This document shows, piece after piece, positions 6,481 to 64,000 of a DNA stretch of 64,000 nt. Within the stretch, counting starts at the first letter, position 1; the number at the start of each line of letters is the position of its first letter. The position numbers and the translations under genes were made by a program. Source of the stretch: Eledone cirrhosa (Eukaryota); NCBI GenBank assembly GCA_964016885.1, contig OZ024747.1, positions 51,770,001 to 51,834,000 of the forward strand, written 5' to 3'. The notes beneath the pieces were generated by a model. It was not told where the DNA came from. It searched no databases and saw only the letters and a list, made by a program, of their open reading frames with translations.

Positions 6481-7593
6481 TTATTCTTTCCAGACATGTG
6501 GACAACGTGAGAAGATTTCATTTCTTGAATTTAGGCAATCGCTATTGCGCAATCTCCTTTAAATATTTATCCTTTCTTCAATACACAGTCCATAAGACAG
6601 ATTGCCCCTTGCGTATGGCTTGGACTTAGTGATAGCTTTCCATTGAATGGAGTTGTCTATACATGAGTCTTTGAAAGACCATCCGTGGCTCGCGAGTTTC
6701 GTTGATGATCCGGGTACCTAAAGGTCGACCGATGGTTCAGGAAGCGTTCCTTAAATCGACGTTCCGCCATACCCACATAGGATTTGACCTCATGTGGTTG
6801 ATTTGGTCGGTTGGAAGTGACCACAGCTTAATAAACTACAGCAGGTGTGTTGCATTGCTGTTGACGGGGACACGGTTCAGGCTTTCGGCAAGAACATCCT
6901 GGTGATGTGCTGCTCTTAGATCTGTTGGTGATGTGGGCTTTCATATTCTTAGCACAGGAGTACCCTAGTTTTACTCTGTGTCTGTTAAAGATGAAGCAGT
7001 ATTTGTGACCTATGTGAAAATGTATATCTAAGAGGGTTAAACAAGTTTTTCCTACATTAGTTTTAACGTTGAGTGAGAAGGGAAGAGAGAACCAGATAGT
7101 TTGTCTATTGTTACGATTTCTTTTCTTATTGCTGTTGGCGTTAGTGGGGGAGTAAGTAATTGGTTGCGAGAAGCCGCTGTTAGCTAACGCTGTGTTATAG
7201 TAGGGAGCCGCTCTGTCAAAGATTGCCTTATTAGAGGAGAGGCTAGAGATTCTAGTACTGGTATTATTTACGAAGTTTCTACAAACGGTAGGAGGGTGGC
7301 ACGAGTCCTTGTGTATGTAATTAGGTTTTTCGTTTAGTTTATGGAAGGGTCTGAAGGTATGTGCGCGAAGGTCTAAATTAATGTCTAAGAAATGTACGCT
7401 AGAGAGGTTGGTAGATACCGTTATCCTAACTCCTGACTCATTAAAAGAAGAAGTTAAATCTTTTTTAAACCGGTCCAAATCGTGACCACATTTATGGCTC
7501 GATAAGGTCAGACCATCGTCGCGGTATATTCCCGTGTGGAAGTCCGGGAATATAACGCGTAATATATCTAAAATAAATAAGCCAACCAAGTCG

Positions 7594-7595
<2 letters not shown>
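6481..7595 (-). mobile_element. Penelope-like element fragment of a second lineage (YRDD type, possibly Naiad-like): RT C-half, Cys linker, GIY-YIG
   Basis: GIYRDDGL, HFLDINLDL, KPNYIHKDSCHPP, CSCRKPEPCPRQQQC..VVY, an in-frame TAA, then SYVGMAERRFKERFLNH and a terminal CLNSRNEIFSRCPH. Truncated at (TA)n. Confidence 0.85.

Positions 7596-7652
<57 letters not shown>

Positions 7653-8239: not shown

Positions 8240-8287
<48 letters not shown>
8240..8287 (-). repeat. (ATT)n tail or target tract of the Tx1-like element
   Basis: About 16 TAA units on plus, directly after AATAAAgaaatc on the minus strand. Confidence 0.9.
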
Positions 8288-8289
<2 letters not shown>

Positions 8290-8549
8290 TTTCTTTATTA
8301 ACCACAAGGGTTTACATAAAGTAGACATTAAGGACAGTGCAGGACAATGCAGGACGGTACAAATGGGCATTTCTGCGTGTAAAAAAACAAAAACAGAGGA
8401 TGTAAGAAAAATAACAATGAAAATAACAATGAAAAATTCCCCAATAGGGGGGAGACTTCGGAGGGACATTTGTGGAGAAAGCCCAGTAAAAAGCCACAAT
8501 GACCCTGACCACCAAGGCAAGTGCCCTCTCCCAGTTTTCCACCTTTAGT

Positions 8550-11500
8550 TTACAGATATATACTCAGAGTCGGCCCATTCACTCGGGCCATTCTTGCTTC
8601 TCTCACCCATCTTTCAACAAAATGCTGGGAAGAGAGCACTTCCTTCTCTACTCTGATTTTCCTTTTCAAATGAAATTTGAAAAAGTCAATCAGAGCATCA
8701 CCGAAGAGGTAAGTGCTCGTCTTCAGCCCTTTCAAACGTGTCCACCATACTATCTCTTTCGCCATGGCCACCAGACAGATAAAAACTGCCTGCCCTTCCC
8801 GGCTAAAGGAGGAGGGCGGGGCAATCCTCACGATAGACTCAGATGATAGCTGGATCCGTCCTAAACGCGACAGCAGGTGTTCGACATAAACCCACAAGTC
8901 AGCAATTTTCGGACACTGGACGAGTGCGTGCAGGACGGTTTCGTCGCCCTGCGCGCATCTCGGACATGCCCGGCTGACGGCACCTCCATGCCTGTAGAGT
9001 TTATCCCGAACTGGCAAGGCTCCTCGGTAGCACTGCCAGGCCAGAGATTTCTGGAAGTTGTCCATAGGCCCCGGCCCGAAAGTTCTTCCGAAGAGATTGG
9101 CTAGTTGATTTTCGTCGACGCCTAGAGTTTCCCCAAGTACGTCGTCGCTCTTCCCCTCCACTAATCCTCTATAGAACGCCGAGGTGGAGTTTCCACCGAT
9201 CACATTGCCCGATTGGTCGAGGGCTGTGAGCGCCTGAAGACATTCCAGTCTCCAGGCGCTCCCTCTCGGTCTTCGCTTGACCCAGGACTGCAGCTCCGTC
9301 ATGGAAACGAGCTGGGGAAAAACGCGTCTAGCAAACGGCGACCACACCTGATCACCGTCGAGGAAGAGGTGGAGATGTCGTAGCCTGAGCGCGTGCCTGC
9401 GCATCATCAGCCACGGCATGCCCAGCCCTCCACGTAGCGGGTGTTGACAACAGATGGACCGCCTGACCATCGGAGCACGTCCCTTCCACAAAAAGCGAAA
9501 GAGCAAACGCTCCAGCGCAGTCAGGCGAGGCTTAGGACAAGGTACGACGGTTAGGCGGTAGCAGATGACAGACGCGATGTACGCGTTAGCCACCTCCGCT
9601 CGACCTTTCAGGGATAGCTTCCTCTCCGCCCATTTCTGGGTGAGAGAAGCCACCCTGCTCGTCACCTCGTCCCAGTTTTTGTCCGTCTGGAGGTCCGGAC
9701 CGAACCAGACCCCTAGCAATTTAACCGGTCCGTCCGTCCAGCGCCCGACGACGCTGTTGGACGGCATGGACCTGCCTCTCCAGGTGCCGAGCTGCAGGCC
9801 CACCGACTTTTCCTGGTTGATCATTGCTCCTGTCACCGCTTCGTATTCTCTTAGTGTAGTGCCGATCGCCTCGATGTGTTTGGCGTTCGACACCACTACG
9901 GTGACATCGTCCGCATATGCTGACACGGATCTTCCGCATCCTAGTTCGCGCGGGACTCCCCTCAACGTCTCCAGTTTGTGCAGTAATGGCTCGAGAGTCA
10001 ATACGTACAAGAGGGACGAGAGGGGACATCCTTGGCGGACCGAGCGCATGATGTTGAACGGTTCCGACAGGTGACCGTTCACTCTCACCACAGAGCAGAT
10101 GTCGCTGTGCATGGCAGCGATCCAGCCTCTGAAGACGGGCCCAAAGCCAGCCGCCCTCAGGACTGCCGCTAGGTAACGATGGTCGACCCTATCGAAAGCT
10201 TTCGACTGATCTAAATTGATCAAGGACCCACCCGTGCCAGATTCCCTAGCTACCCTCTCTACGATGTATCGCATGAGGTGGAGGTTGTCGTGGATGGATC
10301 TGTCGGGAATGGCGCATGTCTGCGCCTCTCCCACCAGACCACCAACGACAAGCGCCAACCTCTTTGCTAGCACCTTGGCCAAAATCTTAAACTCTGTGTT
10401 TAGCAGAGTTATGGGCCGGAAATTGTCTATGTTATCCCCCTTGTTCGGATCCTTTCTCAGCAGTGCCACCGCTCCTCGGCTCACAGAACTGGGAATTCTC
10501 CCGTTCTGTTGCCAGTTGCAGTAGACGTCCGCCAAGAGGCCTCCGAACAAGTCTGGCATCTGTACGTAAAGTTCATAGGGCAGACCATCCAAACCAGGCG
10601 ATTTACCCCTTGTGCAGCCAGTCATTGCCTCCCTTACTTCAGCGGCTGTTATCGGCTTTTCGCAACACTTCGCCTCAGTGGCCGAGAGCCGCGGCAGTCC
10701 GTCGAGGTAGACACTAAAGTCCATCCCTCTACCCGGCCCCCCGCTGCCCCCGAACAGCTGAGCGAAGTGTCGCTGAAAAGCTTCACACATTTGCCCGGGA
10801 TCGAGTAGCATGCGCCCGTCGTGGTCCACCAAAGACCGGATCGTGGCTTTGTTGCCACGACGCGCCTCCGCCACTCGGGCCCATTGAACGGCTTTCGTCC
10901 CCTCGTGTCTGAGAACACGCACCCTAGCTCTGACAACGCAGCCTTCGTGCTTTGCATTGAAGAATTGGTCAAGGGCCAATTTCGCCGCAAGCACGTCGGT
11001 CGCAATGCCTTTGCTAAGCGCCTCGTCTAATTTTTTAACTAGTTCTCCCTCTGCTCTATTTTTCTCTATTGCTAAAGCCTTACTAAACCTAATCGATTCT
11101 ATTCTAATCGCTCTTTTCAGAGCAAACCACCACTTGTTGTTGACGATGGCCCCCGTCAACGCCCGCTTAACTAGTTCGCTAATCCGGTCTCTGTAGGCCT
11201 TGCGCGCTGGTAAGGACGCGTTTAGCTTCCAGTAGCCGGGTCCTCGTCTATGAAGCCTATCTAAGTCAAGCACACAGGTCACGAATTTGTGGTCCGTGTA
11301 GCTGACTATCTTGAATTGTGGACAGCCTATGCTAGACCTATCTATTTCCCTACAAAATACTCTATCTAGATATGATCTGGATGACCCTATGCGGTTTGTC
11401 CAAGTCCACATTGGCACATTCGGGAAATCCAATCGGTACCTGTCAGACAGTTCAAAACGCCTGAGCAGGTTGGTGAGGCTCTTGCACCCTCCACCCCTAT

Positions 11501-11969
11501 CCGCTAATCCCACACAGTCCCAGCGTGCATCTAAGATCCCGTTCCAGTCGCCCACTAACACTAAAGAGCGCGACGTTCCAAGAAAGGTCTCCAGACGCCG
11601 GAAGAAATCAGGCCGCCCTGCTCCTGTCGGGGCATAGACGGCCACTAGCCTGAAAGCTTGCCCGTCTCCGCTGGTCACGTCCAGCACCACCAGCTTACCC
11701 TCTGGGTCCAGGAAGATGGCCCGTATGGCGAGATCCAAACCTCTCCGAAAAAGTACAGCAACTCCTCCACCCGATCCAGGACGGCTGGGAGATGCGTACA
11801 CATCGTAGCCGCCGAAGATCGGTGCGAAGGCCCGTGCTTCGGAGATTCTGGTCTCGCTGATGGCCACTACATCTATGTTTAGTGACCTGAGGTCGTTGAG
11901 CAGGTGACCCTGCTTCCATGACGACCCCAAGCCACGCGCATTTATGCTGCCTATTCTGAGTGAGGTCAT
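8550..11969 (-). CDS. ORF2: AP-like endonuclease, reverse transcriptase and C-terminal CCHC zinc finger (1139 aa)
   Basis: APE motifs SINARGL, ISETR, VYAP, VGDWN, LDRVF, TDH. RT motifs NFRPITLLN, LDQSKAFDRVDH, VRQGCPLS, YADD, LLGVWF. C-terminal CPRC...ETVLHALVQC. GYWKLN and LDQxKAFDRVDH are typical of the Tx1 clade. Confidence 0.95.
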   Translation of the reverse strand: MTSLRIGSINARGLGSSWKQGHLLNDLRSLNIDVVAISETRISEARAFAPIFGGYDVYASPSRPGSGGGVAVLFRRGLDLAIRAIFLDPEGKLVVLDVTSGDGQAFRLVAVYAPTGAGRPDFFRRLETFLGTSRSLVLVGDWNGILDARWDCVGLADRGGGCKSLTNLLRRFELSDRYRLDFPNVPMWTWTNRIGSSRSYLDRVFCREIDRSSIGCPQFKIVSYTDHKFVTCVLDLDRLHRRGPGYWKLNASLPARKAYRDRISELVKRALTGAIVNNKWWFALKRAIRIESIRFSKALAIEKNRAEGELVKKLDEALSKGIATDVLAAKLALDQFFNAKHEGCVVRARVRVLRHEGTKAVQWARVAEARRGNKATIRSLVDHDGRMLLDPGQMCEAFQRHFAQLFGGSGGPGRGMDFSVYLDGLPRLSATEAKCCEKPITAAEVREAMTGCTRGKSPGLDGLPYELYVQMPDLFGGLLADVYCNWQQNGRIPSSVSRGAVALLRKDPNKGDNIDNFRPITLLNTEFKILAKVLAKRLALVVGGLVGEAQTCAIPDRSIHDNLHLMRYIVERVARESGTGGSLINLDQSKAFDRVDHRYLAAVLRAAGFGPVFRGWIAAMHSDICSVVRVNGHLSEPFNIMRSVRQGCPLSSLLYVLTLEPLLHKLETLRGVPRELGCGRSVSAYADDVTVVVSNAKHIEAIGTTLREYEAVTGAMINQEKSVGLQLGTWRGRSMPSNSVVGRWTDGPVKLLGVWFGPDLQTDKNWDEVTSRVASLTQKWAERKLSLKGRAEVANAYIASVICYRLTVVPCPKPRLTALERLLFRFLWKGRAPMVRRSICCQHPLRGGLGMPWLMMRRHALRLRHLHLFLDGDQVWSPFARRVFPQLVSMTELQSWVKRRPRGSAWRLECLQALTALDQSGNVIGGNSTSAFYRGLVEGKSDDVLGETLGVDENQLANLFGRTFGPGPMDNFQKSLAWQCYRGALPVRDKLYRHGGAVSRACPRCAQGDETVLHALVQCPKIADLWVYVEHLLSRLGRIQLSSESIVRIAPPSSFSREGQAVFICLVAMAKEIVWWTRLKGLKTSTYLFGDALIDFFKFHLKRKIRVEKEVLSSQHFVERWVREARMARVNGPTLSIYL

Positions 11970-12004
11970 GTTTAAAATAGAGTGGAAAAGATGGGAAAGA
12001 CCAC

Positions 12005-14101
12005 TTACCGTACTTTTGGTAGAGGAGGGATGGTTTTTACATCCCTTTTCACTTGATCGTCTGGTGAAGGGACCGTTGAATCGTCCCTTCGGCTGGTCGT
12101 CGGCTCTTCTAAGAGAATGTCTGAGTATACTCTTCGATTGATGGTTCCTCCTAGGTCCCTGAAATCACCAACTGCGTTGGGGAATTTCGTTTTAATATTT
12201 GTGTATTGTTTCTGTGCTATTTTTAGCAGTCTTATGTTAGTTGGCGTTTTGATTGGTGCTGGTATTATGTAGTCCTGTTGTGAAATGTCTGTGTGTTCAA
12301 TTATGTAAGTCATTAGTTTCTTGTTGTGTGTATTTATTGCCGTGCATTTGTTTTTCTGGGGGTGGGGTGTGGTTCTACTATTTTCTTGTCGTTGTTGCTG
12401 GGTGTGTGTGTTTTGTTGTTGTGTTTGCGATGTTGGTGCTTGTGGTGGTGGTGTTGAAGGTGTTGTTGGCGGTGGGGTTGTCGCCGGTGGTGATGGTGGT
12501 GCTAGTGTGGGTGGTGATGGTGTTGGTGTTGTTGCTGCTGTGGGTCTCTTTGCAGTAGACTTTACCCTTTTCTCATTTCTTTCCTCACTTTTCAAAGGCG
12601 ACGATGCGCTGCTTCTGCGTTTGTGCCTTCTTACGACCTTTTGCCATCTCTCTCCCACCTCACACTCCATGTCTGATTCTGTGAGGTCGGGGAGGGGTAC
12701 CAACTCCACTCTTTCACTTGTTGTTGTTGGTGATGTTTGCACTGGAGTCTCTGTTGCAGCTGTATTTGGTATTGCTGTTGTTGTTGTTAGTATTTCCACT
12801 GCTGCTGCTGTTTTTGATTTCCGTGGAGTGGGTATGGGTGCCACGGGCCTATCGTTCCTGGTTGCCGCTTGTCCTGTTGCTGGTAGCCGTGGAGCCGGAT
12901 TCGGAAGGAGGGGGGTTTTCTCCTTTCTCAGGGTCTTCTCGTTGCAGAAGGCCCTGAGGTGAGTCTTCGATCCACAGCGAAAGCATTTCGGGCGTTTACC
13001 CTCAACACTTATGGGCAGTTGAGTGCCGTTATCGAAGTCTATCACATCCGGGATAGCTTCGATGCACTCCTGGTTGGTTTGGATTAGCATCTCAATGGAG
13101 GAGCCGACCCAATCTTCTCTTACTTTTTTCTGTACTTGCAGTACAGTTGTTTTGTCCTCGATTCCGACGAGGACAGACGCGGCCAGCCAAGAAGGGGTCA
13201 TTCCGGGGGGGACGTGGGTCAGTTTGACCCTCACAATTTTTTGCCCACAGTAGGAGGGCACCAACACCATTTCCTCGCTCCTTAGGGTCACTACTGATTG
13301 GGCCTTTGCCTCCTGGGGTGTGGCAAAAAGTACGTCTACGGTGGCATATTTTTTGCCTCGGGTGATGTGCGTTTTCCGCTGCCACACAGACCCCAAGGCT
13401 TTTTGTATTTGGGCCTCTGTGGCTCTTTCCACCCTACGGGATTTTGTACTTACTGTACGGTACGTGACCGTACAGTGCTCTTGGGTTTCAAAAAAATTTT
13501 TCGCTGCCTTGCAGATTGCTCGGTGTCCGTTCTTTGTCACCATCTTCTTCGCTTCCTCTAATTCCTCATTTGTTATGAGGATTGTTTCCAAGTTTTTCGC
13601 AATACCTGCAAATGAGATTGGTTTTTCTCTGCTGTTGTTGTTGTCGTCAGAGCTGCTGGTACTTTTGTTGTTGCTGCAGGTACTACGACTACTGCCTCCG
13701 CCGCTGTTGCTGTGGTTGTTGTTGGTGTTGCTGCTGCTAATGCTGTTGTTGTTTATGCTGCTGGTGATGCTGTTGCGGCTGCTACTGTTGTTTTCATTGT
13801 CACTGTTGCAGTTGTTATTACGGCTGCTACTGCTATTATTCCTGACGTCAGACGAATGAACTGGGTTTTCGTATTTCCCGCACACCTGTTTCGTCGCTGT
13901 CGTCGTCGTCGTGGAGAAACCTTGCACGCTTTGCACGAGACTTTTCTTTTCTTTCGTCACTTGCGAAAGAGAAGGGAGGGAGAGAGACACATTTAAAGAA
14001 GGGAGGGAGCGAGACAATCTTCTCTCTGCTGTAGTGATGATTGAGGAAGAAGAAGACGGAATGAGTGGGAGTGACGTATGAAATTTCTTTTTCGTAGCCA
14101 T
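12005..14101 (-). CDS. ORF1: gag-like nucleic-acid-binding protein with a zinc knuckle (698 aa)
   Basis: CFRCGSKTHLRAFC fits CX2CX4HX4C. Ser/Asn-rich N-terminus and Pro/Thr/Gln-rich C-terminal part. Lies directly upstream of ORF2. Confidence 0.9.
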   Translation of the reverse strand: MATKKKFHTSLPLIPSSSSSIITTAERRLSRSLPSLNVSLSLPSLSQVTKEKKSLVQSVQGFSTTTTTATKQVCGKYENPVHSSDVRNNSSSSRNNNCNSDNENNSSSRNSITSSINNNSISSSNTNNNHSNSGGGSSRSTCSNNKSTSSSDDNNNSREKPISFAGIAKNLETILITNEELEEAKKMVTKNGHRAICKAAKNFFETQEHCTVTYRTVSTKSRRVERATEAQIQKALGSVWQRKTHITRGKKYATVDVLFATPQEAKAQSVVTLRSEEMVLVPSYCGQKIVRVKLTHVPPGMTPSWLAASVLVGIEDKTTVLQVQKKVREDWVGSSIEMLIQTNQECIEAIPDVIDFDNGTQLPISVEGKRPKCFRCGSKTHLRAFCNEKTLRKEKTPLLPNPAPRLPATGQAATRNDRPVAPIPTPRKSKTAAAVEILTTTTAIPNTAATETPVQTSPTTTSERVELVPLPDLTESDMECEVGERWQKVVRRHKRRSSASSPLKSEERNEKRVKSTAKRPTAATTPTPSPPTLAPPSPPATTPPPTTPSTPPPQAPTSQTQQQNTHTQQQRQENSRTTPHPQKNKCTAINTHNKKLMTYIIEHTDISQQDYIIPAPIKTPTNIRLLKIAQKQYTNIKTKFPNAVGDFRDLGGTINRRVYSDILLEEPTTSRRDDSTVPSPDDQVKRDVKTIPPLPKVR

Positions 14102-14338
14102 GTTGTTTTTTGTTTAAAATGAATATTGGGTACAAAACCCCAATAACTGGTTATTTAGCCCCGAAGGGCCAAATAACGGACAGAAAGACCCCTCTCACGA
14201 GGAGGAGGGTGTCTTTATCAACAATTTGGTTCAAGTTTTAAACAATTTACAATTGTTTTAACGGTTAAAAATTACTATACCTTACAGAGCCGAGCCTCCG
14301 TCAACCATGGCATTCAATAATAATAATAATAATAATAA

Positions 14339-14535
14339 TTGTTTCTACTTTATAATAATTGTTTCTACTTTAGGCACAAGGCCAGCAATTACCCCAGTGT
14401 ATTACTGGTACTTTATTTTATCGACCCCGTAAGGATGAAAGGCAAAGTCAACCTCGGCAGGATTTGAACTCAGATCGTAAAGGGACGTAACTATGCTGGA
14501 AAGCATGGCGTCCGACCCTCTACCGATACTGCCAA
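14339..14535 (-). mobile_element. tRNA-derived SINE with duplicated 3' end
   Basis: A-box tggcagtatcgg, B-box gagttcaaatcc, core gcctttcatccttacggggtcgataaaataaagtaccag, 3' ccttgtgcctaaagtagaaacaattatt. The terminal ~20 nt occur twice. Confidence 0.9.
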
Positions 14536-14650
14536 ATAATAATGATTTCATTTATTAGCCACAAGGGCTTTTTATTGTCCCCTACATACCATGTAGGGGA
14601 CAATAAAAAGACAGGGACAGTGGGGGTTTACAATAAGGTCGAGTAAAAGT
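14536..14650 (-). mobile_element. Short 3'-end fragment related to the Tx1-like family, with a perfect 20-bp hairpin
   Basis: taataatgatttcatttattagccacaaggg matches the LINE 3' terminus. Hairpin at 14568-14610. Confidence 0.6.
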
Positions 14651-14672
14651 GCACAATGGCAATAATAATATA

Positions 14673-18555: not shown

Positions 18556-20107
18556 ATGTATGTCTACATACATATTATATATGCACAAACACACATACAC
18601 GCTCATATATATGTATATACAAGAATACATATATATATACATAATTTTGTGTGCCTGTGTGAGTTACAAAAATGAATAATTTTCAACTTTTATCAGATAA
18701 AATTTCCTTATCAAAATTTCTTCGTTCTTTGTACTACATTCCAGTTTTTATAGCATTATCTGAATATCACGTGATATACATGTTAGAAATAGAACCCACA
18801 CTTATCAAAGGCGACGGCAGTGTTTTGTCTCAGCCTGGGCAAGCTTTGGTTGAAGTTGGAGTAAAAGGTTTTATATGTAAATGATATGAGCTTTTAATAT
18901 ATCAATTCAAATAAGGGTGGTGGATAAAATACCATTGCGCTGTTTGTTCCGCAATTTCATATTCTAATTTCAAATCACACCAAAGTCAGGAATTCCCTGT
19001 CAAATCGTGATGTTGATTTCATCATCTTTACTCTTTCCTCAAAGTTACTGACCTTTGTCTAAATCAGATATCGATATAACATATTGAAAATATTTCTCAA
19101 TGTGATAGCATATTTAAAATAAATAAACAGGATATAAATTAACTTGCGGTGTTAGTAAATTCAGTAAATTAGATTGAACAATTTTAACCGTAGGTTCAAT
19201 CTGTAACAGAACGTATTCAGAAAGACGGGAACACAATATTGATAGATGCAACTTTATTTTAATTTATTCACTGCGTAACATGATGTATGCTAATAGATCT
19301 AATGTAAACTGGTCACAGTTTTTTCTGATTTTCAGGCTGTCTACCTTTTTTTCTCCTATATCTAGTAGAAGTACTGATGCAAAGTATGAAGCTCGGAACA
19401 AGTAGAGTTGATGCTGTAGAGTGAAGTAATCTCCCGCGACATTTTACATAGACAATCACGACCAGATTGTGTCTCTAGGTGTGACAAACGACATATAAAT
19501 TAGATAAGGACAAGCATGCTGCTTTTAAACAATGTCCAATCTATTTCCTACATTTTGTATTATTTTTGCTTCCCAAGGTAACCCTCTTGTTTTAGAGTAA
19601 TATCTAAGTCAATTGAATATAAATTGCGAATTTATTTATCTGTGATTTTTAAAAGGTCATCCAATAAATAGAATCTGCTTTATTTGTGTGGATAGAAGCA
19701 AAATTGATTCTTTCGGAGCCTCAAAGTTGCTATTCCGTTGTACGTAATGATTTTAGTTTATTGTAGATTTTCAGTAGAGTGACGGGGAACCGAAAGAGGA
19801 TGGACATAATCCATGTTGGATAATTCAAAAATCACTGATACATTCGTTATGTATTCTTTATGCTGAGTCTTTGAAATCATTCCAGAGTGAAATGTTTTCT
19901 ACATTGCATGTGATATTTACTGATTAAATTCCCTGTTATGTTCAGCGTTATGTTCTTGACAAACATGCTATAAGAGGTGGGATGCCACTTAAGTAAGGTT
20001 CTCCAAGAAATTCTGAATTTGCATAAAATGTAATCATGTTGAATATCGAGTACCATAATTACACATACACACACTCTCTCTTTCACACACGCACACAATG
20101 TTTTTTA

Positions 20108-21350: not shown

Positions 21351-23813
21351 GTCAAAGCGATCAGTCGCATATTTTGACGTGGGAGACTATTTATTAAATT
21401 TAAGATGAATACTATCTCCGACAGTAATGCCACAACTACAGTCATGTTGAATAACTGGTTATTCTTCTAACTATATCTTTTGAAGACACCTTTTATTCGA
21501 ATTCGTAGAGATATCCGACTAAATACATAATTCATTTTACAAGGATTTGCTACAAACAGCATGGCTGAACACAACATCAACAATAAAATTAAGGAAGTAC
21601 CTAAGATAAATAACAAGGAAGGTAAACAAACTTTATTCAGTTGTAGCTACAGAAGAAACCGAAATTATAAATCGCATTTCTCTTGGAGATGCGAACTTAA
21701 TGATTTATTTAATTGTTATAAAATGGAAAAATAAATCCCCCTTGGCTATATGAACAGAATGAAGCTACACTGGGACGAAATACACCCAACTTGCTAAAGT
21801 CCCAGATATTATTGTCAGAGCCATAGAGAGGCTGTCTTCTTCTAAGGTTAAAGACAGAGAGGGAGGATTCTATTTTCACTGATAAAATAAAATATCGCAG
21901 GGGTATATTTCAGGGAGACAATCTCTCTGTGATATTATTCATCTTGTCATTAAACCCCTTGTCCTTTCTGTTCATGAAATGTGAGGGGTACATCATTGGC
22001 TCGCAGAAGGACAGAAATACGAAGCTAACCCATAATTTCTTTGTGGACGATCTGAAACTCTATGGATGGGATGAAGAAAAATCTTGACCTGGTTACAACG
22101 TTCTCAAAGGATATAGGAATGGAGTTTGGCCAAGATAAATGCTCATACATGTAAAGCGGGAAAAACAAACCAATCTAGCAACATTGTCATCAATGGCCTA
22201 ACTGTTTCACCGATATCTGATGAGGACTGCTACAGATATCTGGGGATAGATGAGAACATATCCTATAATAGTATCTGTAATAAAGAACGCGTAACCAGGG
22301 AATACTACACCCGATTAAGAAAGATCTGGTCATCGGAACTCTCTGCGCAAAACAAAACAGTGGCTCATAATGTGTTTGCTGTGCCTGTCCTAACACCAAC
22401 GTTTGGAATAATCAATTGGACGATAGACGAAATCCGAGCAGTTGATGTTGGAACTCGAAAAATACTAAACAACACCAGAAACTTCCACATCAACAGTGAC
22501 ATAGACCGCCTTTACTTGAAACGTAAGCAGGGAGGCAGAGTCCTAACATCAGTCCAGACAACATTTGAATGTCGCATCATATCTCTCCGACAACATCTAC
22601 GAACCTCGAAGCGTAGGAGCCCGTTCCTCTGGCAAGTCTATCTGCATGAAACAGATAAGATCATGAGAGTTTGGAAGGACCTCATCGAGAGATATTCCCT
22701 GTGTAATAATCAAAAACTCACACACAGCGAAGTCGCTCAGCAGTATCGCAGTGAATCCATGGATGAAAAACTACATACTTATCAGCAAAAAATCATGCAT
22801 GGATATGTTGCCAGGAAGCTCCAGAGTGAGAGTAATATAGATAAGGAAAGTAGTCTATCTTGGACTAACAACCACTATATTTGCTCCCACTTTGAAGGAT
22901 ACGCTTTTGCAATCCAAGAACAGGAGATTAACACGAAATACCTGATTCACAAAAGAGATAGGGATCCAGGCAAAACACCTAGATGTGATACCAAGTGCAG
23001 ACTCTGCAGAACTAACATCGAGGATATCACCCATGTCATCAGCAGCTGTCCAAAGATGTCATCGCGGTACTATCTACCTATGAGGCATGTTGTAGTGGCC
23101 AAAACACTGTACAATGCAGTTAGTAAAAAAGATAGCCCCGACAATAAACACATTAAAAGTTACAGCAATGTGGAAGACATCCGTGAACATAATATGAAAG
23201 AGTACTGGTGGAAGGTTCCAGTAAAAACCCCAATAAAATGCAGGCATAACAGACCAGATATTATGATATGGGACAGGGAGAAGAAAACATACACAGTAGT
23301 GGGAATTAGCTGCCCAGCAGATGGCAATATAATATCAAAAATTAGTGAAAAGGAGAATATTTATGCAGAACTGATGAGAAATCTGCAGATACTCCACCCT
23401 GATTATACCTTCAGACTTATGCCTGTGATTATTGGGGCACTGGGGTATGTTAGTAACCGCCACAATAAAAATCTTGAGAAGCCGGGCTTCACAGGAATAG
23501 AAAGAACACCGCTAGTTAGGAAATTACAAGTACAATCCGTTAATGGAACAGAAGAAATATGTAAAACATTCCAAAAATGTTGCATCTAATAACTGCATAT
23601 ACACATGTACAGATGCAAAGCATATACACATGCACACAAACTACTCAAAACATTCACATCCACACATACAATAACATCCATATCTACACATGCATGCATA
23701 CATACATATCTACCTAGTTGATGTTGTGTAAATTCCAATGAGAGAGTCTTGTGTCTATGTTAGAAACCGACTGTCTATTGGTAAAACTTTGTGAAATTAT
23801 AAAACCAGAAGAA
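21351..23813 (+). mobile_element. Internally deleted R4/Dong-like non-LTR retrotransposon with restriction-like endonuclease, flanked by (CATA)n
   Basis: N-terminal W..ELN..FNCY...GYMNRMKLHW from ATG 21561 jumps at ~21800 to RGIFQGDNLS..LNPLS and HNFFVDDLKLY. (CATA)n at 21248-21346 and 23814-23828. Confidence 0.8.
22126..23589 (+). pseudogene. RT thumb, CCHC zinc finger and RLE endonuclease portion of the R4-like ORF (487 aa open stretch)
   Basis: YRYLGI, DRLYLKRKQGGR, CRLC..EDITHVISSC, MRH, NRPDIMIWD, ISCP, VIIGALG. Upstream RT motifs are in a different frame. Confidence 0.85.
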
Positions 23814-23849
23814 CATACATACATACATGTATATATACATAAATATAAA

Positions 23850-36612: not shown

Positions 36613-36634
36613 GCTTAATAATAATAATAATAAT

Positions 36635-38343
36635 GATTTCTTTATTGGCCACAAGGGCTGACATCAAGAGAAACATTACAGACGACACAGGACGGTACAG
36701 GACGGTACGATGTGGGTTTTGTGCGTGCAAAGATTTTTATTATTTATATAAGAAAAGAAAAAGAAAAAGAAAAAGACATAGAAACATATATATATATATA
36801 TAAACAATAAAAATAAAAATTGAAACAATTAAAAATTCCCCAATAGGGGGGAAAACTCCGAGGGTTACTCGTGGCGAAAACCACACAAAAGACCACGGCC
36901 ACCCTGACCACCAGGGCAAGCGCCCTCTCTCAAATGTTTCCATTTCTCAAACTACAGGCGTATATTCAGAGCGGTGCCGTTCACTTCGGACCATTCTCGC
37001 TAAATTCACCCACCTTTCAACAAACTTGCTAGAAGGCAGCACTTGCCTCTCACCCTGATTTTCCTCTTCAAGTGAAACTTGAAAAAGTTAATTAGAGATT
37101 CGCCGAAGAGGAAAGTGTCTGTCTTTAACCATTTCAACCTTGTCCACCACACAATCTCTTTCTCCATGGCTACCAGACAGATGAAAACCGCCTGCCCTTC
37201 CTCCTCGAAGGAAGACGGCGAGACCATCTGCACAATGGACTCAGTCGATAACCGGATCAGCCCTACACGCGACAGCGACTGTTCGACATAGCTCCACAAG
37301 TCAGCAATGCTCGGGCACTGAACGAGTGCGTGCACGATGGTTTCGTCGCTCTGCGCGCATCTCGGACAGACTCGGCTGACGGCACTTCCGTGCCTGTAGA
37401 GCTTATCCCGAACCGGCTACGTTCCCCGGAGCACTGCCAGGCCAGGGATTTTTGGAAGTTATCCATAAACCCTGGGCTAAAGGTTCTCCGGAAGAGAGCA
37501 AACAGCTGATCTTCTTCGACGCCCAAGATCTCCCCGAGAACGGCGTCGCTCTTCCCCTCCACTCGTCCTCAATAGAACGCCGAGGTGGATGTTCCACTGA
37601 TATTGGTGCCCAGCTGGCAGAGGGCAGTGAGCGCCTGGAGACATTCCAGTTTCCAAGCACTATCCCTCGGTCTTTTCCTGACCCAGGACTGCAGCTCCGC
37701 CAAGGAGACGAGCTGTGGGAAAACGTGCCTGGCGAATGGCGACCACAACTGTTCACCGTCAAGGAAGCACCAGAGATGTCGCAGCCTCAGCTTGTGTTTG
37801 CGCATCATCAGCCATGGCATGCCCAGTCCTCCACGCAACGGGTGTTGACAGCAGATGGATCGTCTGACCATGGGAGCGCGTCCCTTCCACAAAAAGCGGA
37901 AGAGGAGGCGCTCCATTTTGGTATGAGTTGGGCCGGGGCAAGGGCCGACGGTGAGGCGGTAGCAGATAACGGATGCGATGTACGCATTCGCCACCTCCGC
38001 CCGGCCTTTCAGGAACAGCTTCCTCTCGGCCCATTTCTGGGTGAGTGAGGCCACCTTGCTCGTTACTTCGCTCCAGTTTTTCTCCATCTGGAGGTCCGGT
38101 CCGAACCAGAACCCGAGCAATTTAACCGGTCCGTCCGTCCAACGCCCCACGACGCTATCGGACGACATGGACTTGCCTCTCCAGGTGCCGAGCTACAAGC
38201 CCACCGACTTCTCCTGGTTTATCTTTGCTCCTGTCACCGCTTCGTATTCCTTGGGAGCGGTGCCGAGCATCTAGACGTGTCTGGTGCTCGACACCACCAC
38301 GGTCACGTCGTCGGCGTAAGCAGACTCCGATTTCCCGCATCCT
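36635..38343 (-). mobile_element. 5'-truncated, frameshifted copy of a diverged subfamily of the Tx1-like element
   Basis: Homologous to ORF2 from SAYADD to the end (e.g. VVGRWTDGPVKLLG, CCQHPLRGGLGMPWLMMR), with related 3' UTR, AATAAAgaaatc and (ATT)n tail at 36616-36634. Confidence 0.92.
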
Positions 38344-38460
38344 AATAATTTCTTTATTAGACACACAAGGCTCACATTAAGGAAACATTAAAGACGATAC
38401 AGGACGAAACAGTGTGTGTGTTTTTTTGTGTAAAACCAAATTTATAACAGAAACTAAGAA
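38344..38460 (-). mobile_element. Short 3'-end fragment of another Tx1-like family member
   Basis: taataatttctttattagacacacaagg...aaacatta.agacga.acaggacg aligns with the 3' UTR ends at 8288 and 36635. Confidence 0.7.
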
Positions 38461-38466
38461 AATAAT

Positions 38467-38659
38467 AATTGTTTCTACTTTTTTGGCACAAAGCCAGCAA
38501 TTACCCGGTGCATTACTGGTACTTTATTTTATCGACTCCGTAAGGATGAAAGGCAAAGTTAACCTCGGCGGGATTTGAACTCAGATCATAAAGGACCGTA
38601 ACTCTATGCTGCAAAGCATGGCGTCCGACCCTCTACCGATACTGCCAATCCACCGCCCT
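38467..38659 (-). mobile_element. Full-length tRNA-derived SINE
   Basis: Family consensus from gggcggtggattggcag to gtagaaacaattatt. Confidence 0.9.
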
Positions 38660-45248: not shown

Positions 45249-45484
45249 AAGTATCTTCTTCTTGTCTTCCTCCGGTTGCAACGTTTTTTGAAATATTCAC
45301 TTCTGCGTTTACAGACTGACTTTGTTAGTTTCAGAAGATCCCGTTAAGGGTGAAAGCAGCGATTCTTTGCTTAAACTTTAATTTGTTATTTTAATAAATA
45401 TTTGCTCTACGGTTCTTATATATTTGATATAGATTTATCCTTATCGAGCCCTCTTTGGATTTTAGTCTTCAAATTTATTATTAT

Positions 45485-45561
<77 letters not shown>

Positions 45562-60608: not shown

Positions 60609-61143
60609 TAGGTGATTCAGTGAATTACTAGTGTTGGTACAAAAGCAAGCACTCTACGCACAGGCTGGGTGTATATACTAGAAAAATACGAGGAAGTTTG
60701 CTTTACATGTATAACATATTTATTGTGTATCGACCTATGGGTGACCTGGAGTCAATCCTCTACAAAACGCCGGCCATTAATCGCTCATATACAGGAAACT
60801 GACTGGCCAGTCTGCCGATATGCAAATCTGGCTGATCAGTGGATCTGCTGATATGCAGATCTGACCGATCAGCCAGTCTGCTAAAATGCAAATCCGGCCT
60901 ATCAGTTTATTATTATTATTATTATTATTGAATGCCATGGTTGACGGAGGCTCGGCTCTGTAAGGTATAGTAATTTTTAACCGTTAAAACAATTGTAAAT
61001 TGTTTAAAACTTGAACCAAATTGTTGATAAAGACACCCTCCTCCTCGTGAGAGGGGTCTTTCTGTCCGTTATTTGGCCCTTCGGGGTTAAATAACCAGTT
61101 ATTGGGGTTTTGTACCCAATATTCATTTTAATCAAAAAACAAC

Positions 61144-63255
61144 ATGGCTACGAAAAAGAAATTTCATACGTCACTCCCACTCATTCCGTCTTCTTCTTCC
61201 TCAATCATCACTACAGCAGAGAGAAAATTGTCTCTCTCCCTCCCTTCTTTAAATGTGTCTCTCTCCCTCCTTTCTCTTTCGCAAGTAACGAAAGAAAAGA
61301 AAAGTCTCGTGCAAAGCGTGCAAGGTTTCTCCACGACGACGACGACAGCGACGAAACAGGTGTGCGGGAAATACGAAAACACAGTTCATTCGTCTGACGT
61401 CAGGAATAATAGTAGTAGCAGCCGTAATAACAACAGCAACAGTGACAATGAAAACAACAGTAGCAGCCGCAACAGCATCACCAGCAGCATAAACAACAAC
61501 AGCATTAGCAGCAGCAACACCAACAACAACCACAGCAACCGCGGCGGAGGCAGTAGTCGTAGTACCTGCAGCAACAACAAAAGTACCAGCAGCTCTGACG
61601 ACAACAACAACAGCAGCAGCAGAGAAAAACCAATCTCATTTGCAGGTATTGCGTAAAACTTGGAAACAATCCTCATAACAAATGAGGAATTAGAGGAAGC
61701 GAAGAAGATGGTGACAAAGAACGGACACCGAGCAATCTGCAAGGCAGCGGAAAAATTTTTCGAAACCCAAGAGCACTGTACGGTCACGTACCGTACAGTA
61801 AGTACAAAATCCCGTAGGGTGGAAAGAGCCACAGAGGCCCAAATACAAAAAGCCTTGGGGTCTGTGTGGCAGCGGAAAACGCACATCACCCGAGGCAAAA
61901 AATATGCCACCGTAGACGTACTTTTTGCCACACCCCAGGAGGCAAAGGCCCAATCAGTAGTGACCCTAAGGAGCGAGGAAATGGTGTTGGTGCCCTCCTA
62001 CTGCGGGCAAAAAATTGTGAGGGTCAAACTGACCCACGTCCCCCCCCCCCCCCCCGGAATGGCCCCTTCTTGGCTGGCCGCGTCTGTCCTCGTCGGAATC
62101 GAGGACAAAACAACTGTACTGCAAGTACAGAAAAAAGTAAGAGAAGGTTGGGTAGGCACCTCCATTGAGATGCTAATCCAAACCAACCAGGAGTGCATCG
62201 AAGCTATCCCGGATGTGATAGACTTCGATAACGGCATTCAACTGCCCATAAGTGTTGAGGGCAAACGCCCGAAATGCTTTCGCTGTGGATCGAAGACTCA
62301 CCTCAGGGCCTTCTGCAACGAGAAGACCCTGAGAAAGGAGAAAACCCCCCTCCTTCCGAATCCGGCTCCACGGCTACCAGCAACAGGACAAGCGGCAACC
62401 AGGAACGATAGGTCCGTGGCACCCATACCCACTCCACGGAAATCAAAAACAGCAGCAGCAGTGGAAATATTAACAACAACAACAGCAATACCAAATGCAG
62501 CTGCAACAGAGACTCCAGTGCAAACATCACCAACAACAACAAGTGAAAGAGTGGAGCTGGTACCCCTCCCCGACCTCACAGAATCAGACATGGAGTGTGA
62601 GGTGGGAGAGGGATGGCAAAAGGTCGTAAGAAGGCACAAACGCAGAAGCAGCGCATCGTCGCCTTTGAAAAGGGAGGAAAGAAATGAGAAAAGGGTAAAG
62701 TCTACTGCAAAGAGACCCACAGCAGCAACACCACCAACACCATCACCACCCACACTAGCACCACCATCACCACCGGCGACAACCCCACCGCCAACAACAC
62801 CTTCAACACCACCACCACAAGCACCAACATCGCAAACACAACAACAAAACACATACACCCAGCAACAACGACAAGAAAATAGCAGAACCACACCCCACCC
62901 CCAGAAAAACAAATGCACGGCAATAAATACACACAACAAGAAACTAATGACTTACATAATTGAACACACAGACATTTCACAACAGGACTACATAATACCA
63001 GCACCAATCAAAACACCAACTAACATAAGACTGCTAAAAATAGCACAGAAACAATACACAAACATTAAAACGAAATTCCCCAACGCAGTTGGTGATTTCA
63101 GGGACCTAGGAGGAACCATCAATCGAAGAGTATATTCAGACATTCTCTTAGAAGAGCCGACGACCAGCCGAAGGGACGATTCAACGGTCCCTTCACCAGA
63201 CGATCAAGTGAAAAGGGATGTAAAAACCATCCCTCCTCTACCAAAAGTACGGTAA
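61144..63255 (+). pseudogene. ORF1 with a premature stop
   Basis: AAA->TAA at 61654-61656 splits ORF1 into 170 and 531 aa. Poly-C expansion at ~62040. Confidence 0.9.
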
Positions 63256-63290
63256 GTGGTCTTTCCCATCTTTTCCACTCTATTTTAAAC

Positions 63291-64000
63291 ATGACCTCAC
63301 TCAGAATAGGCAGCATAAATGCGCGTGGCTTGGGGTCGTCATAGAAGCAGGGTCACATGCTCAACGACCTCAGGTCACTAAACATAGATGTAGTGGCCAT
63401 CAGCACCAGAATCTCCGAAGCACGGGCCTTCGCACCGATCTTCGGCGGCTACGATGTGTACGCATCTCCCAGCCGTCCTGGATCCGGTGGAGGAGTTGCT
63501 GTGCTTTTTCGGAGAGGTTTGGATCTCGCCATACGGGCCATCTTCCTGGACCCAGAGGGTAAGCTGGTGGTGCTGGACGTGACCAGCGGAGACGGGCAAG
63601 CTTTCAGGCTAGTGGCCGTCTATGCCCCGACGGGAGCAGGGCGGCCTGATTTCTTCCGGCGTCTGGAGACCTTTCTTGGAACGTCCCGCTCTTTAGTGTT
63701 AGTGGGCGACTGGAACGGGATCTTAGATGCACGCTGGGACTGTGTGGGATTAGCGGATAGGGGTGGAGGGTGCAAGAGCCTCACCAACCTGCTCAGGCGT
63801 TTTGAACTGTCTGACAGGTACCGATTGGATTTCCCGAATGTGCCAATGTGGACTTGGACAAACCGCATAGGGTCATCCAGATCATATCTAGATAGAGTAT
63901 TTTGTAGAGAAATAGATAGGTCTAGCATAGGCTGTCCACAATTCAAGATAGTCAGCTACACGGACCACAAATTCGTGATCTGTGTGCTTGACTTAGATAG
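63291..64000 (+). pseudogene. ORF2 5' part (APE domain), inactivated
   Basis: TGG->TAG at 63342-63344 and a 3-bp deletion removing the Glu of the SETR motif (~63404). Confidence 0.9.

Follow-up and report, generated by a model that had tools for sequence, protein, structure and literature searches.

A young, high-copy L1/Tx1-type LINE resident in (ATT)n microsatellites of Eledone cirrhosa

Microsatellite-specific retrotransposons of the Tx1 clade have been described previously, including Kibi for (TC)n, Koshi for (TTC)n, and crocodilian families for (TTCC)n and (TTTC)n (PMC4494074, PMC3812793). The repeat (TAA)n is the described target of Dong elements of the R4 clade, among them the snail element DongBg, which employ a restriction-like endonuclease (RLE); one passage of the same review classes Dong among APE elements (PMC3812793). 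Tandem-repeat tails are found in LINE clades such as the I factor (TAA) and UnaL2 (TGTAA), and stringent LINE/SINE pairs with a common 3′ stem-loop are described for UnaL2 and a maize L1 lineage (PMC3747384). The only Tx1-SINE pair that we found in print, SINEU/Tx1-Mar, is argued from common targets (PMC4494074). For human L1, templated or chimeric insertions formed by annealing of the cDNA strand are reported to be rare and mostly shorter than 250 bp (bioRxiv 2024.08.27.596794). In the passages of these sources on which we draw, no APE-class LINE with an ATT target unit was found, and the supplement and figures of PMC4494074 may list further Tx1 targets.

Here we report on a window of 64,000 nucleotides from Eledone cirrhosa (GCA_964016885.1, contig OZ024747.1, positions 51,770,001 to 51,834,000), in which all coordinates below are counted from the first base. 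Our main reading, to which we assign a probability of roughly 85%, is that a young, high-copy LINE of the L1/Tx1 type occupies (ATT)n tracts in a single orientation, with target-site duplications of 15 to 19 bp, and that its ORF2 protein likely nicks the (AAT)n strand and primes there. The first copy in the window (8288..14315, minus strand, ~6.03 kb, 5′ module A) belongs to the L1/Tx1 group of APE-RT LINEs and is intact. It begins with GAATGCC at 14315 on the minus strand, immediately 3′ of an (ATT)8 tract (14316..14339, minus strand), and this 5′ end is in register with all 30 of the 30 best genome matches. The tract is the tail of a SINE (14340..14535, minus strand, with a 20-bp end duplication at 14332-14372), a point on which the initial annotation is corrected. 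At 8288 the copy finishes ...AATAAAGAAATC and passes into approximately 16 ATT units (8240..8287, minus strand) that are wholly or partly target-derived; poly(A) is absent, as had been noted before. Just inside this end lies a stem-loop, AACC-CUUGU-GGUU (8300..8312, minus strand), supported by folding and by stems with compensatory changes both in the sister families and in the SINE, followed by AATAAA (8294-8299, minus strand) and GAAATC.

ORF1 (12005..14101, minus strand) is open for 698 amino acids and has low-complexity arms flanking a conserved core. A gag-like CCHC knuckle and one or more RRM domains are expected in ORF1 proteins of the Tx1 clade. The core carries a single C-X2-C-X4-H-X4-C knuckle (aa 373-386) that is also present in module B, whose ORF1 is 53% identical to that of module A across 202 aa. 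A Pfam profile search with ORF1 gave 0 matches at the cut-off, a homolog search gave no matches, and a single-sequence structure model reached a pLDDT of 32, too low to use. ORF2 (8550..11969, minus strand) is open for 1139 amino acids and comprises APE, RT, and a C-terminal CCHC motif, with Pfam matches to Exo_endo_phos, RVT_1, and zf-RVT. The APE motifs N, E, Y, GDWN, D, and DH are all found in alignment to the human L1 EN, the RT motif is YADD, and the best solved-structure match is human L1 ORF2 (182 bits).

The element therefore has every feature of the L1 superfamily (L1/Tx1), namely an ORF1 together with an ORF2 that bears an N-terminal APE, an RT, and a C-terminal CCHC. Its two ORFs and N-terminal APE rule out membership of the Dong/R4 clade. 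The initial annotation had placed it in the Tx1 clade, and this is likely, given that the RT groups with U2-inserted and fish TX1-named proteins (98/99; 40/60 rows), but falls short of proof in a tree with a polytomy at its base and no vertebrate L1 row. Searches with ORF2 (phmmer) give 290-472 bits to these same proteins, compared with the 182 bits for human L1, and 386 to an algal L1-type protein. Insertion at a specific sequence, accompanied by a target-site duplication of short and defined length, and the one ORF1 knuckle are Tx1-type traits, whereas the target, (ATT)n rather than (TC)n or (TTC)n, is not that of Kibi or Koshi. Together with relatives that are ~50% identical, the element forms its own deep lineage (100/100). 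The fish ‘pol-like’ proteins BAC82605/6/9, which we take to be the Kibi and Koshi deposits, are ~35% identical in the RT, and their grouping with the element has an SH-aLRT of 84 in a quick tree but no resolved sister relation in a careful one. An alignment-based scan yielded distant relatives only, a metagenome scan with P0003 yielded none, and the ESM Atlas yielded generic APE-RT clusters only. We make no claim of horizontal transfer, as ORF2 words occur in public runs under many organism labels and the low-depth run X5 covers the SINE region too, which fits trace host DNA. No RNA run was among those listed with the ORF2 words, an outcome that has no bearing on expression.

A second copy begins at 60930 after TT(ATT)7 (60907..64000, plus strand, tract included), and so both copies do start directly after ATT units, as first observed. 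This copy had been called full-length; the window alone shows only part of it, and the adjoining assembly confirms the description, with an end ~2.95 kb past the window, an ATT tail, and 98.2% identity to the first copy. However, neither of its ORFs is intact, the longest open frames being 554 and 532 aa. A 5′-truncated sister-family copy (36616..38344, minus strand, ~78-80% identical, ATT tail at 36616-36633) had been cited for the ATTATTA at its 5′ junction. The sequence is there, but it consists only of the two ATT units that end another short LINE 3′ fragment, which lies upstream together with a SINE (38345..38648, minus strand), and so this copy is weak evidence on its own. The window also holds a short piece from the 3′ end of a sister-family LINE (14536..14660, minus strand), recognized by sequence and fold and flanked at both ends by ATT units.

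Across the assembly, in which 6,204 exact 3′ ends of the LINE are found, the proposed ATT-tract specificity is borne out. (ATT)4 in a single phase (ATT|G) precedes 2,394 of 2,505 intact A-type 5′ ends (95.6%), and against a B(ATT)5 background of ~1e-4 (540,085 overlapping matches per ~6e9 strand positions) this association is not due to chance. We also drew a positional sample of 100 3′ ends; for 62 of them a 5′ end is present, of module A in 41 cases and of module B in 21. An ATT run of at least 9 nt is present at 61 of these 62, compared with a fraction of 0.0022 among 20,000 random positions, and modules A and B, which differ in 5′UTR and ORF1, follow the same rule. Repeats of TA, CA, and CATA, which are far commoner in this genome, show no comparable association with the LINE, and (CTT)n occurs at LINE sites only occasionally, within compound tracts. 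At a few 3′ ends (L098, L118/119, L133, L053) a lone ATT gives way to other sequence. The copies thus lie in ATT tracts in one fixed orientation, which is likely to reflect targeted insertion.

One young subfamily comprises 1,129 copies. In a sample of 60, 51 are full-length, all 51 in a tract, and both ORFs are open in 30 of the 51, and hence the case for recent activity stands genome-wide. In adjacent tandem pairs of the same module, the 5′ part of the upstream copy matches its downstream neighbor in 5 of 15, with switch points located 0.6-4.4 kb inside the element. In most tandem pairs the two copies inserted independently, with no 5′ copying. We suggest that, when reverse transcription takes place immediately upstream of an older copy, the new cDNA on occasion invades that copy and acquires its 5′ part from it. 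A competing account, which we rank as a credible but lesser prospect, is that allelic crossover or gene conversion after insertion joins the pre-insertion allele to the new upstream copy without any cDNA invasion. It predicts the identical layout of left flank, resident 5′ part, new 3′ part, duplicated spacer, and resident, and the pair L331/L330, identical from end to end, might reflect simple duplication or misassembly. However, chimerism occurred twice in succession in each of two arrays (L185-187 and C1:114.8 Mb), the switch points would require frequent crossovers in very short windows, and pairing of cDNA with nearby DNA has been described in human L1 (bioRxiv 2024.08.27.596794).

The tracts are also occupied by other elements, and 5′ tracts of the LINE are recognizable as tails of SINEs, sister LINEs, and RLE elements. 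Among neighbors no more than 130 nt away, RLE elements lie in opposite orientation in 65 of 66 cases, whereas members of the LINE's own family (49/49) and SINEs (21/22) are in the same sense. The RLE neighbors have a single 1071-aa ORF with RT, CCHC, and RLE, are best matched among solved structures by R2 proteins, and are flanked at both ends by (AAT)n in L192, L193, and L194; we call them Dong-like on the strength of these features. The abundant SINE has the LINE's 3′ CUUGU stem-loop, an ATT tail, and the same duplication length, and it likely uses the same machinery. The hairpin claim draws on four types of stem, related by compensatory changes and seen in a small number of families, with AACC/GGUU, GCC/GGC, GGC/GCC, and GGGC/GCCC flanking one loop across LINE families and the SINE; the isolated 3′ ends of the SINE and the 36.6-kb copy fold no better than shuffles. 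SINE duplications, found in 12 of 54 copies, span 12-20 bp, all begin with ATTA, and extend into unique AT-rich DNA. Away from LINE ends, only 10 of 42 SINE 5′ flanks contain an ATT run of at least 9 nt, and short ATTA sites are commoner than tracts, which suggests that the nicking requirement may be short.

We infer that ORF2 would bind the 3′ CUUGU hairpin of its RNA, and that its APE would nick AAT^AAT on the bottom strand. The L1 endonuclease likewise cuts at a T^A step. Read-through AUU units after GAAAUC would then pair with the primer, in which case no poly(A) would be copied, and a second nick at ATT^ would follow ~17 nt downstream. Each insertion would leave two tracts, leading to head-to-tail pile-ups mixed with opposite-strand RLE elements and SINEs. 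It is the APE domain itself that we propose reads the tract, and some contribution may come from base pairing between the primer and the (AUU)n end of the RNA. Indeed, that pairing might be the main source of specificity, if a loose endonuclease blind to the tract cut AT-rich DNA at T^A steps and efficient priming were confined to nicks able to pair with (AUU)n. The SINE duplications that start with ATTA yet continue into unique DNA, the LINE copies in short or imperfect ATT motifs (L033, L118/119, L303), and the tandem-repeat-tailed clades reported in PMC3747384 all fit this idea, which we nevertheless consider the less probable one. Full-length copies nearly always have at least 12 nt of perfect ATT at their 5′ side; this sequence represents duplicated target from the right of the first nick. 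Priming by 3-6 nt of microhomology would often yield duplications that extend into unique DNA.

That the 5′ ATT units derive from the target, as the initial annotation held, is demonstrated by duplications that carry variant units, which measure 17 bp in L123, 18 in L059, 18-19 in L060, 17-19 in L033, and 15-16 in L136. A 3′UTR DNA search, which skipped common words and so returned mainly diverged copies, served only as a source of example duplications. In the four truncated copies among them, the duplication begins directly after the last bases of the element. An element-free paralog of the L059 site lies in the window (45340..45490, plus strand), matches the upstream flank of L059 at 97%, and bears an ATT tract (45475-45486). 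Among contigs of public runs aligned to the first copy and to locus L172, which break at the repeats, no empty allele was observed.

Truncated copies give a less decisive answer. A tract stands at the junction in 19 of 38 true 5′-truncated copies (15/31 from the positional sample, classed by eye, and 4/7 young), which is ~200-fold over the 0.2% background but no more than half, a borderline outcome for the refuting condition that the initial annotation had set. The 31 are what remains of 38 non-full-length rows after 7 were left out, of which L145, L138, L157, and L164 are deleted or interrupted module B copies and L154, L095, and L101 have other modules, and the pairs L160/161 and L118/119 each duplicate one event. 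The other 19 comprise 6 with a short ATT motif only, 6 that abut an opposite-strand RLE element without a tract, and 7 with unrelated flanks, including two (TTC)n and one ACT/ACC. A scripted junction-phase test anchored 7 of 12 truncated copies and allowed ATT| in 5 of the 7. Copies that look truncated at element position 2263 were not counted as truncations, since they represent a second 5′ module.

The half of the truncated copies without a 5′ tract, along with the invariant phase at full-length 5′ ends, could be taken to mean that the element carries (AUU)n at both ends of its RNA and creates tracts by random insertion. We regard this as very improbable. Variant flank units duplicated on both sides largely refute it, and the recognizable SINE, sister-LINE, and RLE tails, the tracts present at the remaining half of truncated copies, and the coupling of neighbor orientation to tract strand also argue against it. 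Wide insertion followed by survival only in harmless microsatellite-rich regions, which the great abundance of simple repeats in this genome might seem to favor, is refuted by a phase and strand that are base-exact even in the youngest copies and by the lack of such association with the commoner repeats.

We tentatively propose, as a possibility that we hold to be less probable than its negation, that ATT tracts are a self-renewing niche of three classes, with the APE LINE and its SINE on one strand and the RLE element on the other, in which the SINE is driven by a Tx1-type LINE via the common 3′ hairpin. Because every new LINE would insert directly upstream of older relatives, cDNAs left incomplete would often be finished by copying the resident. 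If so, this would help to explain why the full-length rate reaches ~85%, why hundreds of copies are intact, and why one ORF2 is found with exchanged 5′UTR/ORF1 modules. The candidate SINE partner and the neighbor-templated 5′ ends bear on how LINEs exchange ORF1 modules. As a large young family with many copies in which both ORFs are open, the LINE is a leading candidate for an actively retrotransposing element in octopods. The octopus literature that we found discusses RTE and Dong, and Tx1 targeting was not found there. Each insertion splits a tract and duplicates ~17 bp, and so the LINE likely influences the trinucleotide microsatellites of octopuses and could be a confounder for ATT markers.

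Among known systems, as far as the cited sources describe them, Kibi, Koshi, and the crocodilian Tx1 families are likewise two-ORF APE-RT LINEs with microsatellite-specific insertion, but here the unit is ATT/AAT without C, the host is a mollusc, and thousands of copies are mostly full-length. Keno, the U2 snRNA-specific Tx1 element, is approached through two metagenome relatives in U2 genes (L216 and L218; Rfam) that score 472 and 381 bits to ORF2, yet the target differs and the tree branch is separate. The UnaL2 and maize L1 pairs resemble the present pair in a common 3′ hairpin with compensatory stems and a common tail on LINE and SINE, whereas in our case a Tx1-type LINE is the partner and the target repeat serves as the tail. 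Human L1 chimeras offer a parallel in that a growing cDNA would pair with and duplicate nearby homologous DNA, but the stretches here are 0.6-4.4 kb, affect about one third of adjacent same-module pairs, and are favored by target sharing. Dong has a single ORF and a C-terminal restriction-like endonuclease. It shares the microsatellite, and Dong-like RLE elements occupy the same tracts in this genome, whereas the present LINE has an N-terminal APE, two ORFs, and the opposite orientation. The occurrence of both enzyme classes in the same tracts with opposite polarity provides a natural comparison of convergent target recognition within one genome. A microsatellite-specific Tx1-type LINE is known as a mechanism class, and the ATT target unit is new relative to the sources cited; it adds an APE-type solution to (TAA/ATT)n, a target for which the literature that we found names no element other than the RLE element Dong.

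Copy 1, the full-length LINE of the window, lies on the minus strand from 14315 to 8288 (6.03 kb) and comprises a 214-nt 5'UTR, an ORF1 of 698 aa, an ORF2 of 1139 aa, and a 262-nt 3'UTR. Its ORF2 contains APE, RT, and zinc-knuckle domains with the catalytic motifs present. Its start directly adjoins a SINE whose tail is (ATT)8, and its 3' terminus, AATAAAGAAATC, is followed by about 16 ATT units. Copy 2, which starts at 60930, is full length in the assembly and 98.2% identical, with broken ORFs, and a LINE fragment of a sister family occupies 36634-38344. An open frame of 274 aa at 6828-7652 (minus strand), whose motif we take to resemble that of a Penelope-type RT fragment, returned nothing at the cut-off in a Pfam search. 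At 22663-23589 (plus strand) and 23448-23825, the C-terminal portion of an element of the RLE type, with a weak zf-RVT match, lies beside an RTE-like fragment.

The genome searched was the 3.0-Gb assembly, in which the exact 3'-end 34-mer occurs 6,204 times and the intact 5' end of module A, one of the alternative 5'UTR/ORF1 parts, 2,505 times. Directly before 2,394 of these 2,505 ends stands (ATT)4, in one phase; as background, B(ATT)5 has 540,085 overlapping matches in about 6e9 strand positions. A tract was likewise present at 30 of 30 loci drawn from the 40 best 5'-end matches, where flanks are unrelated. A positional sample was formed from the first 100 exact 3' ends, which all lie on contig C1; in it, 62 copies reach a 5' end: 41 of module A and 21 of module B, a distinct 5'UTR/ORF1 (core 53% identical) fused to the same ORF2 near position 2263. 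A perfect ATT run of at least 9 nt adjoins 61 of these 62 junctions, with a background of 0.0022 at 20,000 random window positions, and at least two ATT units immediately follow the 3' end in 89 of the 100 copies. ATT tails also terminate sister families at 74-84% identity. We regard the ATT-specific LINE as real and strongly supported, representing a new target in a known kind of element.

More recurrent heads occur right after ATT tracts (3' flanks of L126, L143, L209, and L301; 5' end of L154), and these are probably further 5' modules or sister families. Furthermore, (CTT)n repeatedly adjoins the ATT tract or junction (L103, L112, L114, L133, L288, L289, L292, L297, L298, L324), and (TTC)n stands alone on the 5' side of two truncated copies. 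Either compound tracts or a minor target like that of Koshi may underlie these occurrences.

The initial annotation had looked to 5'-truncated copies for ATT at the 5' junction as a sign of targeting. With seven rows dropped as not 5' truncations, the positional sample holds 31 truncated copies, 15 of which have a junction tract (13 in a strict script test; in addition L123, whose tract is a variant one, and L181, where the tract lies past a 13-nt inversion). Five others show a short ATT motif, five adjoin a 5'-truncated RLE element on the opposite strand without a tract, and six have other flanks. Combined with four of seven truncated copies in the young sample described below, a tract is present in 19 of 38, far above background but short of a majority. 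The association is thus at its weakest in truncated copies. It is plausible that junction deletions account for the missing tracts. Several truncated LINEs (L162, L170, L099, L167, L147, L319) meet an RLE element of the opposite strand head to head, without an intervening tract; either sequence was deleted during insertion, or two cDNAs were joined at a single break. At L159-L161, short truncated copies with one common truncation point form a 395-bp tandem array.

Imperfect tracts bear on whether the ATT is derived from the target or encoded by the element. Among 10 loci picked for this purpose, the element is flanked on either side by duplicated variant units at L123 (17 bp), L059 (18), L060 (18-19), L033 (17-19), and L136 (15-16), and L048 has a duplication of 22; clear duplication is absent at L104, L105, L118, and L058. 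In four truncated cases the duplication begins right behind the last bases of the element, and thus the element contributed no ATT there. Moreover, the L059 site has a paralog in the window that lacks the element and carries an ATT tract.

Other elements share these tracts. Within 130 nt of 200 junctions, 66 neighbors are of the RLE type, 65 of them in opposite orientation, whereas all 49 same-family LINE neighbors and 21 of 22 SINE neighbors are same-sense. The RLE elements have a single long RT-CCHC-RLE ORF whose top solved-structure matches are R2 proteins, and (AAT)n flanks them at both ends. We call them Dong-like on the basis of excerpts from two papers rather than a tree: Dong targets TAA (PMC3812793), and Dong-R4 and L1-Tx1 are both recently active in O. 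vulgaris (PMC13282606). At 68.69-68.71 Mb of contig C2, an 8-kb unit of a LINE and a truncated RLE element is tandemly duplicated (L205, L206), and differences between its LINE copies are almost confined to the last 130 bases.

The LINE, its sister LINEs, and the SINE all carry a CUUGU loop roughly 18 nt upstream of the ATT tail; the stem that closes it is AACC/GGUU, GCC/GGC, GGC/GCC, or GGGC/GCCC. A stem of at least 3 bp is found at 140 of 148 LINE ends and 35 of 46 SINE ends, rows whose kinship reduces them to four independent types. Duplications flank 12 of 54 SINE copies (12-20 bp), every one starting with ATTA, which would fit machinery common to LINE and SINE, as well as initial nicking of the bottom strand behind TAAT. 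These same duplications show that short sites are usable, which keeps alive the rival view that RNA-primer pairing is the basis of targeting. L138 and L157 are module-B copies that the SINE interrupts within an ATTA site, in both cases at position 1924 of the element.

The assembly contains 1,129 matches to a young-allele pattern. The young sample (60 of the first 100 matches, four picked because no 5' end was listed) comprises 51 full-length module-A copies, all behind (ATT)4, two of module B, and seven truncated. Both ORFs are open in 30 of the 51, and in 13 of the 41 module-A copies of the positional sample; the median difference between young copies that are not neighbors is 48 bases. Public runs X1-X13, which span ten organism labels and nine studies, contain over half of the ORF2 31-mers, and the signal in X5 is likely trace host DNA.

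Head-to-tail neighbors are mostly independent insertions. In some pairs, however, the spacer repeats the entire variant-bearing 5' tract (34-59 bp), and there the upstream copy matches the downstream copy over its 5' part only. For example, L185-L187 have four private variants in common to position 511 and L185/L186 nine more to 1143, whereas in their 3' parts L186 and L187 most resemble other loci, with 3 and 10 differences. A like pattern occurs at C1:114.8, C28:71.9, C4:365.9, and C1:439.1 Mb, arrays chosen with bias through their identical 5' ends. In the positional sample, 2 of 9 adjacent A/A pairs have zero differences in 480 nt versus 4 of 820 overall; in the young sample, 3 of 6 directly adjacent pairs, one identical throughout, show none before 1,000 nt versus 0.5% of 1,266 other pairs. 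We favor invasion of a resident copy by cDNA as the source of these chimeric pairs, with a probability of about 0.6; allelic recombination is a more tentative explanation for the same pattern. A process related to cDNA invasion has been described for human L1 (excerpts of bioRxiv 2024.08.27.596794).

The placement in the Tx1 clade made by the initial annotation is likely. Similarity leans toward Tx1-type proteins (290-472 bits) over human L1 (182), but an algal L1-type protein reaches 386; the comparison set includes fish proteins named TX1 or pol-like. The closest named homolog is an Argonauta hians protein (73%), which makes an octopod the likely host. In an RT tree of 40 rows (20 others left out, and no vertebrate L1 among the rows; another tree has 60), the element, two close relatives including the Argonauta protein, and relatives at about 50% form a clade with support of 100/100, which falls in an unresolved group with U2-inserted and fish proteins. 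Judged by sequence, the element probably belongs to the Tx1 clade. Two of the metagenome relatives (L216 and L218) sit inside U2 snRNA genes, the habit of Keno according to parts of PMC4494074; the Keno-like insertions of Tx1-type metagenome elements in U2 genes are at L216:4675-4885, L218:5815-5977, and L220:9079-9233. In L220 a U1 gene follows 2.3 kb further downstream, and the 5' end of L212 has a U1-like start by eye, below the Rfam cut-off.

In literature listings and the starts of abstracts, no ATT-specific Tx1 element, octopus LINE target preference, or present SINE-LINE pair is reported, nor are these in portions of PMC4494074, PMC3812793, PMC9115989, PMC13282606, PMC4758252, PMC3747384, PMC2790886, PMC2684134, and PMC4746887. 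A prior mention in Repbase, Dfam, the 2004 Kojima paper, or a 2015 figure or supplement, outside the literature covered, seems rather unlikely. Three extras accompany the ATT-targeting finding, each of them testable. The element works like Kibi and Koshi but has a different target, and it differs from Dong in its enzyme.
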